From NCBI RefSeq assembly GCF_003790525.1, contig NZ_CP033636.1: a DNA stretch of 64,000 bases; one strand, 5' to 3'. Shown here piece by piece: positions 6,001 to 9,000 of the stretch. Within the stretch, counting starts at the first letter, position 1, and each line of letters starts with the position of its first letter. Source of the stretch: Escherichia coli (GTDB lineage: Bacteria > Pseudomonadota > Gammaproteobacteria > Enterobacterales > Enterobacteriaceae). The position numbers were made by a program.

Positions 6001-9000
6001 GTGCCGCAGAGTTCGCTATTTATGCACGTTCAAACGCTACATTACCTCCACTAGAGATCATTGAGGGTTTTCTAGGGTATCCAGTTGGTGGCCGCGAAAG
6101 ATCGCAGGAAGATCAGCCTAAATCTCCACCGGCCGCGATTATGGTCGCTATGAAGACTGATGGTATAGAAGAAAAGGAGCTTCAGCCGAATATTCCTGAT
6201 GAAACTACTGTACCGGGTAAGCGTAAGGGTAGTAAGACAACTGTCGAGACACGACCAGATCAGGCCTCATTTGCAGAAGCCGTCCGCAACAACTGTTATG
6301 ACCAATGTGTGATTACAGGCTCTAGACTGCGCCAGCGCACTGAGGCTGCTCATCTGATGGAGCATCGTAACGGAGGAGTAGACCATTATACAAATGGGTT
6401 GCTCTTACGCCATGATATACACGATCTTTTCGACGCAAACATGATTGCCATTCATCCGGTGACGTTGGAGGTTAACATTCTCGCTGAAGCTTTGGCGGTA
6501 GATCATGATTTAGCGGCATATCAAGGAGAGTTTATTAAGCCGCTGCGTAAACCCATCAATACTGAATTCCTAAAGCACCGTTGGCAGGTTTTTCAGCACC
6601 GGAACCAAACTGAGCAGCAAGCTTAAGAGACCGGCATGTTTTCTTCCAACTGTGCAATGCTTTGACCCGGGGCAGAAATGGAGAAGCATAGAACTGATAA
6701 TGCGGGCATGCTCTCCGTAAAAGTTACTTTAATTCAGGAAGCCCAACGTTTCATAAGCAGATGATACCTGGTGTTAAGAGCTGCAAGATCAGATTCGGTG
6801 AGGCCGGTGTAATAATTGGTTTTTTGCAAATGTGGATAACCGACCGGGAATAATGATTCGTCGTCATCAAGGCAGATAAATGCTTTAACTCGATGTGAAA
6901 ATACAAAGTCCTCACACTCAGCAGCCCGCACACCTGACTGATTAGGTTTTAAATATACCGAATCGGTAGCACCTATGACTTTGTCTCTATAAGGTAGCCG
7001 GAAAAGAGATTTCAGGTAAGTTATACTGGCACATTCACGCCACGAACTGGAGATGACAATCACCATGGAAGGGCATTTATCCAGTAATTTTTCCACCAAT
7101 GGCATTCGCTCAAAGGTTTCATTTTTGCACCTGTGACAAACCCCATCGAAATCTAAGAAAAGCACGACATGCGAATCAGGGAGAGGGCCCCATAAACCAG
7201 CTGTTGTTTCTTCAGGAACACATACTTCTTCATGAAGAGGGCTTTTCTGCATCAAGAAAGAAGAGAGAATCTTAAATATATTTCTTGCAGAAAAAGACAA
7301 TTTATTACCCCTGAGTCTATGCGAATTTTTTGCGGGGGGGTACCCAAGCTACTCGATGATCTTCTGTAATATCAGGTTGAATTTATTTAACAACAGGAGT
7401 CGGGTTTTGCTCCGGGACATTTTTAGCTATATGGCCATTGTATCGAGGAGGTTGTTGGGTCCATTGATAAAGCTCACCCATCCCGTTACGCTGCTGGATC
7501 CGGCGATTGTACTTTACCATGAAGTTAAATATGTACTTTGCACGTACCTTTGGGGTTTTGCTGTTGTAATCTGCAATCCCTTCAAACACATTGCCCTTGC
7601 GATCAACAATTTTTCTGTAGAGCCACCATGTTCCAACCCAGAAACTAGCGCAAGCATCGTAAGCCAGAACCCGCCACGTTACAGTCGGGAAATGCTTTTT
7701 TATTTCAGGCAGATTGGATGAGTTGATCTGCATCGGGCCAATATCATAAGTGCCGTTAGTATTCCTGCTGAAAGTACCAACCTTACCGCCTTCATTGTCA
7801 AACAACGTAAAAACCAGTTCGGCATCAATTCCGAAGAAGCGGGCGGCATCCGTAATGCACTGAGTGTAAATCTCATCAGGAACGGGAATAGGTTTCACAT
7901 CATCTGCTGGTGGTGTAAACACAACGATTTCTCCACTGAATCTACGTTTTATCTATTCTCCCATATATCTATCGACTTTCTTTCGGCTTTACCCGTTGAT
8001 TTAAGCGTTTAAGCAAAATTCTGGAATTTTTGGGCGTGATAATATTAGTGCTCGATTCAAGGAGCATAAATGAAAAAAATTATTAAGGCATCGGTATTAC
8101 TTCTTTCATTAAGTACCGCCTTCACGATGAATGCCGAGCCGGTTAATACAATGGTACTGCCAGATGCAGCCCGGGATAAGCTCAAAGCCATTGGGCTTTC
8201 AATCGAGCACGTCGAACCCTCGCCAGTAAAAGATATTTTTACGGTGATTTCCAGGGAGGGGGTAAGTTACGTGAGCAAAGACGGAGATTACATTTTTACC
8301 GGAAGCTTATTCCACGTGAAAGGTAAAGATGTGGTAAACACCACTGAGCAGGCCATTTTAATGGGCGTCCGGGAATTCGCATCCAAAACAAAATCCATCG
8401 ACTACAAATCACCAAACGAAAAATACCGGCTTGCTATCTTTACCGATATAACCTGTGGATACTGCCAAAAACTGCATCATGATCTGAAGTCTTATCTTGA
8501 TGCCGGTATTTCGATTAAGTTTCTTGCATTCCCACGTGCAGGACTGAACTCGGTAGTAGCCGGGAACATGGCCAAAATCTGGTGTTCAGCAAAGCCAAAC
8601 GAAGCTCTGGATGCAGCGATGAATCCGGTTTCAACTATCCCGGAAGGACGTCCTGATGAGGCTTGCTTAAACATTATCAAATCGCATTTCCAGGTGGCCT
8701 CAACAATCCCGCTGCAAGGTACTCCTACCATGGTGACACTAAGCGGCAAACCGCAGTTATTTACGGGGTGGCTGAGCCCGGAAAACCTGGTGACCCAAAT
8801 GGGCGCTGCGCAAAAGTAACTTTTCCGACTGTAAGAGGTGTGTATGAAATCTACTTTACTGAGTACGTTAATGCTGGTTGCTGTAGGTGTACAGCCCGTT
8901 TTCGCTGCACAATGTCAGTACGGAGCCTGTGGAACGGAAAACGATCCAGGAATCGTATTTCTGATGTCATCGGTACAAATGGATCAAGGTGAACAACTAA

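Follow-up and report, generated by a model that had tools for sequence, protein, structure and literature searches.

On an IncHI2-type conjugative plasmid of Escherichia coli, the gene at positions 6734 to 7300 (minus strand) of the window, that is, of the whole 64,000-nucleotide stretch of contig NZ_CP033636.1 (assembly GCF_003790525.1) analysed here, encodes a capless (C0) member of the HAD superfamily. We read its product as an active Mg2+-dependent phosphomonoesterase at the cytoplasmic face of the membrane, where it would serve the transfer apparatus as an accessory and act on a large substrate, and we give this reading somewhat better than even credence. The gene and its catalytic motifs are as follows.

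6734..7300, minus strand: coding sequence of the HAD_SAK_2-family phosphatase, 188 codons and 188 amino acids from TTG 7300
7139..7153, minus strand: HAD motif I, D50-F-D52-G-V54, then the conserved H56; it holds the presumed nucleophile and general acid/base aspartates
7037..7051, minus strand: HAD motif II region, S84-S85-S86-W87-R88, placed by conservation in the two alignments described below
6917..6928, minus strand: motif III equivalent, R125 with E128
6860..6868, minus strand: HAD motif IV, D145-D146 (predicted Mg2+ ligands), followed by the non-conserved D147

Many Escherichia and Salmonella plasmids, 210-300 kb in size, contain the 2.9-kb region from 5200 to 8100 at 100% identity; all four that we inspected were typed IncHI2A, MOBH and MPF_F. 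This region is matched by 1006 plasmid records in which the gene already carries the annotation 'HAD domain-containing protein', and a protein identical to its product is present on hundreds of IncHI2 plasmids. The gene is thus an existing annotation and its HAD classification is already in the databases.

Looking at the open reading frame, we found the segments LFLDFDGVCH (D50, D52) and ICLDDDES (D145-D147), which contain the DFDGV and DDD motifs reported in an earlier note on this DNA; only D145 and D146 of the latter are conserved. The assignment to the HAD-type phosphatases made in the same note was borne out by a match to Pfam family PF18143 (HAD_SAK_2) of 72.2 bits (E 7e-20, gathering cutoff 27.5) over profile positions 1-138 of 139, together with the conservation of the catalytic residues. 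This conservation was followed in an alignment of 21 homologues reaching down to 27% identity (A1) and in a larger one of 108 sequences (A2). In the LFLDFDGV-H segment, D50, D52, G53, V54 and H56 do not vary in A1 and reach 90% conservation or more in A2, where G53 too is invariant. The ISSSW segment with S84-S86 is invariant in A1, where R88 is conserved at 90% or more, and S84, W87 and R88 reach at least 90% in A2. R125 is invariant in both alignments; for E128, D145 and D146 conservation is 90% or higher in both, with D147 variable. The motif III residue is an arginine, where lysine is the commoner residue in HADs. A loss of the catalytic aspartates, which the note had named as what would refute the assignment, was not seen on alignment for D50, D52, D145 and D146. 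The AlphaFold2 model, computed with a homologue alignment (pLDDT, the predicted local distance difference test, 91; pTM, the predicted template-modelling score, 0.85), consists of a Rossmannoid core covering about residues 31-187, without a cap insertion, and of an N-terminal helix at residues 6-16. Motifs I to IV and the Rossmannoid core place the protein among the HAD phosphatases. No sequence relative was found among solved structures and no match in NCBIfam; the PADLOC anti-phage defence models gave 0 families at E<=1, and in PHROGs the sole match is to a family without an assigned function. Going by the mechanism common to all HAD phosphatases, Asp50 would attack the substrate phosphate and form an aspartyl-phosphate intermediate, with Asp52 as general acid/base; Ser84-86, Arg88 and Arg125 would hold the phosphate, and Asp145 and Asp146 the Mg2+ ion.

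The best structural matches to the model are protein- or macromolecule-directed phosphatases. The capless HAD protein phosphatases UBLCP1 (3SHQ), SCP1/FCP (1T9Z, 2GHQ) and MDP-1 (1U7O) share 6-14% sequence identity with the protein, which differs from them in its bacterial mobile-element context and in giving no Pfam NIF/FCP match at E<=1. These comparisons bear on the idea of a small-molecule phosphatase, a nucleotidase or sugar-phosphate enzyme that would serve the mobile element by tuning a pool of metabolites or nucleotides. The modelled fold lacks a cap domain that could close over a small substrate, and for a capless HAD a sugar phosphate is a less likely substrate than a polynucleotide. 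The nature of the best structural matches points the same way, the fusions to coupling proteins and the probable membrane tethering described below argue for a localised macromolecular target, and every nucleotide-metabolism neighbour in the family is a singleton. We consider such a small-molecule role improbable.

The gene has been annotated from a downstream start codon, and the choice of start decides whether the N-terminal helix belongs to the protein.

6734..7252, minus strand: RefSeq version of the coding sequence, from ATG 7252, 172 amino acids, WP_015059500.1
7308..7312, minus strand: Shine-Dalgarno-like AGGGG, 7 nucleotides 5' of TTG 7300, read from the sequence
7253..7288, minus strand: putative N-terminal amphipathic helix, about residues 5-16 (ARNIFKILSSFL), from the AlphaFold2 helix 6-16 and the hydrophobic moment

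We favour TTG 7300 over the RefSeq ATG 7252 because of the well-spaced AGGGG, the situation in a sister lineage and the N-terminal conservation in homologues. On inspection of the sequence, ATG 7252 has no Shine-Dalgarno-like motif, unlike TTG 7300. In the Enterobacter IncHI2 lineage a TTG stands at the equivalent position with AGGAG 5' of it, and ATC replaces ATG 7252; the long form is what RefSeq annotates in that lineage and in the plasmid pWF5_MCR. Homologues at 57-70% identity are 185-203 amino acids long and have a similar N-terminal helix as well as a conserved AGLWxPLP segment. Compared with the Enterobacter lineage (86% identity), the ratio of non-synonymous to synonymous substitution rates (dN/dS) was 0.26 overall and 0.18 in the core, values that show the gene to be under purifying selection. 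Change is quicker in the 43 codons at the N-terminus (7 non-synonymous changes, 0 synonymous) than in the core, as expected for a tether or linker, which likewise speaks for TTG 7300. The RefSeq start cuts off the amphipathic helix. A run of seven C on the minus strand (7334-7340), 34-40 nucleotides 5' of TTG 7300, is missing in the Enterobacter lineage (AAACCACCAC) and may be a slippage-prone tract. Downstream of the gene, a hairpin 3' of the stop codon folded no better than shuffles (z +1.5), and an Rfam search of 5000-9000 gave no match.

The 11-residue hydrophobic moment over residues 5-15 is 0.76, a value reached by about 1% of shuffles, and the modelled helix is a possible membrane-binding element. 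In a survey of 230 full-length HAD_SAK_2 family members, 56 have a strongly amphipathic N-terminus, the protein of the window among them, and 23 carry a transmembrane-like hydrophobic segment at the extreme N-terminus. Within this last group no K or R precedes the segment in 20 members, and 2-9 K/R follow within the next 15 residues in 17 members. Such a charge pattern is that of an N-out/C-in anchor, which would leave the catalytic domain in the cytoplasm. No signal peptide was found in the protein of the window. We thus expect the enzyme to be cytoplasmic and probably held at the inner membrane face through its amphipathic helix.

We then considered the neighbouring genes.

7383..7922, minus strand: lytic transglycosylase gene, SLT/TrbN-like (23 bits to Pfam SLT; 81.7 bits to NCBIfam TrbN, under the cutoff of that model)
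5337..6626, plus strand: HNH_2-domain gene, convergent with the HAD gene
1203..5156: trhG, a TraG_N-family gene, followed by the HNH_2 gene

The map of open reading frames agrees with the geometry given in the earlier note, the HAD gene being co-directional with the transglycosylase gene, 82 nucleotides downstream of it, and convergent with the HNH gene. The SLT reading frame has a GTG start with GGAG 5' of it, which leaves no space for a signal peptide at the N-terminus (MFTPPADDVKPIPVPDE...). The conservation of the SLT-HAD pair, which the note had proposed to check on related plasmids, was confirmed: the pair is kept beside trhG in IncHI2, in the Enterobacter IncHI2 lineage and in IncHI1 (R27). 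In R27 the orthologue is R0129, 65% identical and in the same position, as indicated by the gene order R0127 trhH, R0128 trhG, R0129, R0130 trbN-like, R0131 dsbC and R0135 dsbA.

Published R27 microarrays give the expression of this orthologue (PMC7366339). R0129 was 3.8-fold higher at the conjugation-permissive temperature of 25 C than at 37 C and rose 19.5-fold in a derepressed htdA mutant; its values and those of the SLT gene R0130 (169/183, 45/59 and 3304/3770 units) were near-identical in all four conditions (PMC7366339). This profile fits a single transcript and membership of the HtdA/TrhRY regulon. On the minus strand of the 82-nucleotide gap no terminator-like site was found, by a scan that says little since it found no promoter-like site anywhere in 6500-8200. 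From the near-identical expression and the gap without a minus-strand terminator, the SLT and HAD genes are probably co-transcribed. The enzyme would thus be made together with the transfer apparatus as part of the conjugation regulon, and this probable co-transcription and regulon membership lead us to read it as a conjugation accessory enzyme. The accessory genes of MPF_F systems, namely the TrbN/VirB1-like transglycosylase, DsbC/DsbA-like proteins and S26 peptidase, lie in the same block and regulon as the HAD gene in IncHI; their products act in the periplasm on assembly of the type IV secretion system (T4SS), whereas the HAD protein is predicted to be cytoplasmic.

The earlier note had given a cell-wall-remodelling module as an alternative. 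In such a partnership with the transglycosylase the enzyme might, for instance, dephosphorylate a peptidoglycan or lipid-carrier intermediate. Adjacency to and co-expression with the SLT gene in IncHI1/2 speak for it, and in one phage-like contig a weak SLT gene lies 4 kb from a HAD homologue. The missing signal peptide and the N-out/C-in pattern of the anchored relatives make a periplasmic role beside the transglycosylase unlikely. Moreover, beyond IncHI1/2 the SLT adjacency is absent in the more distant conjugative contexts that we inspected. On Klebsiella-type MOBH/MPF_F plasmids a homologue (43-47% identity) stands in the trhG/SLT/DsbC/DsbA block, after DsbA and about 5 kb from SLT, so that SLT adjacency is not the conserved feature. 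We regard a cell-wall partnership as highly improbable.

The same note had suggested that the HAD gene could be part of a nucleic-acid-processing module; for such a module with the convergent HNH gene, proximity in the window is the sole argument. We compared the slot that separates the HAD gene from trhG across IncHI lineages (window 5337-6626, plus strand, against L111:3182-4759, L097 and L115). In R27 the HAD gene and trhG are direct neighbours. The slot of the Enterobacter IncHI2 lineage holds a different HNH gene (353 amino acids) and a YrhA-family gene, co-directional with the HAD gene and opposite in orientation to the HNH gene of the window. In pSH49-2, a near-identical IncHI2 plasmid, the insertion sequence (IS) IS5 splits the HNH gene and the HAD gene is intact. 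Several other near-identical records carry an IS within the matched region (IS1, IS5-family, ISVsa5 or IS3-family). By this comparison the slot holds variable cargo and the HNH gene is unrelated to the HAD gene; the module is not supported, is refuted by comparative synteny, and retains next to no credence. The HNH_2 protein of the window (429 amino acids) has weak PADLOC matches to HNH and phosphorothioate-restriction-like models, and the slot may be a hotspot for homing or toxin-immunity-type cassettes.

Relatives of the protein recur in conjugation loci well outside IncHI, and 1771 of the 2024 PLSDB plasmids with a homologue are typed conjugative. On a circular 159-kb metagenomic plasmid and on a second contig, a nearly full-length homologue (35-38% identity) is embedded in a complete F-type mating-pair operon, in the order traL-traE-traK-traB-traV-traC-[HAD]-trbI-S26 peptidase-traU-trbC-traN-traF-traH-traG. 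Its start overlaps the traC stop in both cases (L103:9001-9618 and L102:8001-8609), with stop/start overlaps on both sides, and as judged from these overlaps it is translationally coupled to traC. In two Rhodobacterales genera, the link takes the form of a gene fusion: on plasmids of Tritonibacter (L112:5928-8645) and Leisingera (L114:2892-5681), the gene immediately upstream of that for the MobF relaxase encodes a type IV coupling protein (TrwB_AAD_bind 455 bits) whose C-terminal part is a HAD_SAK_2 domain (79 bits). These fusion proteins share 81% identity, and both retain the catalytic aspartates as well as motif II, as ISSSWR in one and IASSWR in the other. Further homologues adjoin an S26 peptidase gene, or PcfJ with an integrase.

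On betaproteobacterial MPF_F plasmids the HAD gene lies in a DUF1173-[HAD]-HU-OmpA string, directly after DUF1173 and overlapping it (L104:7781-9522, L105, L106 and L113:5781-7513), and DUF1173 may be a functional partner of the HAD protein. A DUF1173 gene lies 5 kb from the HAD gene in the Klebsiella plasmid L010. The window has a DUF1173 gene at 55712-57028 (minus strand), about 49 kb from the HAD gene, adjoining a C5 cytosine methyltransferase gene (57282-58706) and a thermonuclease-family gene (58921-59433).

Several observations weigh against an enzyme of the transfer apparatus held at the membrane. The helix region of the model is of low confidence (pLDDT 51-65), and 84 of the 230 family members surveyed, about a third, have no N-terminal extension. 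The htdA mutation raises the expression of most plasmid genes (139 of 181 expressed; PMC7366339). The coupling-protein fusion is rare: it was found in 1 of the 120 closest coupling-protein clusters, and a 98%-identical relative has no HAD domain. On other MPF_F plasmids that we inspected, the HAD gene lies outside the mating-pair gene cluster. In pWF5_MCR, an mcr-type IncHI2 plasmid that is still typed conjugative, ISVsa5 splits the HAD gene at about codon 129 (L116:3001-4608). The family is also carried by 172 deposited phage genomes, mostly of T4-like Klebsiella, Enterobacter and Cronobacter phages and always as a 'hypothetical protein', and by at least 127 IMG/VR loci, many of the phage members being in genomes without a T4SS. 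Finally, a Rep3 plasmid contig (L107:3297-9576) has a gene for a membrane-anchored HAD_SAK_2 protein 1.1 kb downstream of a cyclic-oligonucleotide-based anti-phage signalling (CBASS)-type operon (SMODS, ThiF, JAB, SAVED), with two small open reading frames between, and in L109 a HAD_SAK_2 gene adjoins a contractile-injection-system locus. Given the rarity of the fusion, the position of the gene outside the mating-pair cluster elsewhere and the split copy on a conjugative-typed IncHI2 plasmid, we hold that the role of the enzyme in conjugation is accessory at most. Shortened HAD clusters (P0017, P0019, P0021-P0023) suggest occasional loss.

The family as a whole, said to have been defined in the 2016 paper of Burroughs and Aravind, is typical of mobile elements. 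It comprises 1121 representatives at 50% identity (E<=1e-3), and a profile search gives 1821 clusters. Among the best 120 profile matches nearly all are single-domain proteins, with one other fusion and some tandem double-HAD proteins. Metagenomic tandem double-HAD_SAK_2 proteins of about 290-385 amino acids were seen in P0042, P0124, P0172 and P0179-P0181, the first three with two full Pfam model matches each. A literature search on the family name HAD_SAK_2 found no member with a measured activity, localisation or phenotype, searches on HAD in IncHI plasmids and on transposon directed insertion-site sequencing of IncHI2 found nothing on the HAD gene, and the HAD mentioned in an IncHI comparative preprint is a different one, next to the ter operon. 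In the literature searched, this enzyme class is not described for conjugation.

The phage relatives bring in the possibility of a free-standing polynucleotide 3'-phosphatase resembling T4 Pnkp, which would restore 3'-OH ends on nuclease-cut RNA or DNA, for end-healing or counter-defence, independently of any T4SS. Pfam names PF18143 'HAD domain in Swiss Army Knife RNA repair proteins', and the protein of the window is a direct member; the plasmid clade differs from the multidomain RNA-repair proteins in having a single domain and an N-terminal helix and in sitting in conjugation loci. With the phosphatase domain of T4 Pnkp (PDB 1LTQ/2IA5; the sequence was checked against 1LTQ) it shares a capless HAD fold, motif I as DxDGT/V, S-x-R-E in the motif II region and the DD of motif IV, and both are encoded by mobile elements. 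The Foldseek matches include T4 Pnkp and Pnkp1. A profile-to-sequence hhalign comparison gave a weak, marginal match to T4 Pnkp (E 0.006), placing the motif I DxD and setting S-x-R-E on SGRE, against E 0.18 for an unverified MDP-1 sequence, values too weak to choose between the two. Among 149 genes flanking 40 phage HAD groups no neighbour dominates; RNA_ligase is the commonest Pfam family (3/149). A few phage groups have RtcB or another ligase at a distance of up to five genes from the HAD gene, and nucleotide-metabolism genes occur singly besides, which is modest support. A Variovorax plasmid homologue adjoins a 3'-5' exonuclease gene, with LigD nearby. In contrast to T4 Pnkp end-healing, however, the protein of the window is single-domain and no kinase or ligase occurs in its neighbourhood or in the annotated window; ligase neighbours are confined to a minority of the phage relatives, and neighbour clustering over 73 IMG/VR loci showed no dominant conserved neighbour. 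We see 3'-end healing apart from the T4SS as the main rival reading, possible but on balance unlikely.

Returning to an accessory of the transfer apparatus, the enzyme would find its substrate, large and phosphorylated, where the T4SS opens to the cytoplasm. The likeliest substrate would be the transferred nucleoprotein, in the form of a 3'-phosphate end on DNA or of a phosphoprotein located at the coupling protein; a membrane lipid phosphate seems less likely. A stronger proposal is that the enzyme, tethered to the membrane at the coupling protein or at the traC ATPase, dephosphorylates the DNA-relaxase substrate, a T4SS component or a pilus-associated phospholipid precursor, and thereby licenses or improves DNA transfer or pilus biogenesis, in what would be an unrecognised step of conjugation. 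We think this quite unlikely; if it were true, the coupling-protein-HAD fusions would be a Rosetta-stone trace of the interaction.

Plasmids of the IncHI1 and IncHI2 groups are major vehicles of multidrug resistance, mcr-type resistance to colistin included, and their transfer regions still hold conserved genes without an assigned role. New here are the revised start codon, the dismissal of a link to the HNH gene and the repeated association with conjugation loci, two coupling-protein fusions included; this T4SS link is mildly new, and the finding is otherwise ordinary in kind. As the HAD gene is conserved in IncHI and derepressed with the tra genes, and as its relatives are wired into tra operons and a coupling protein, it makes a well-defined target for a knockout and for enzyme assays. 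Whichever way the role falls, the start codon is corrected and the HNH gene is removed from functional models. If the role in conjugation is false, the protein would be one more conserved accessory hydrolase of mobile elements; if it is true, an enzymatic accessory would be added to the parts list of F-type/MOBH conjugation.

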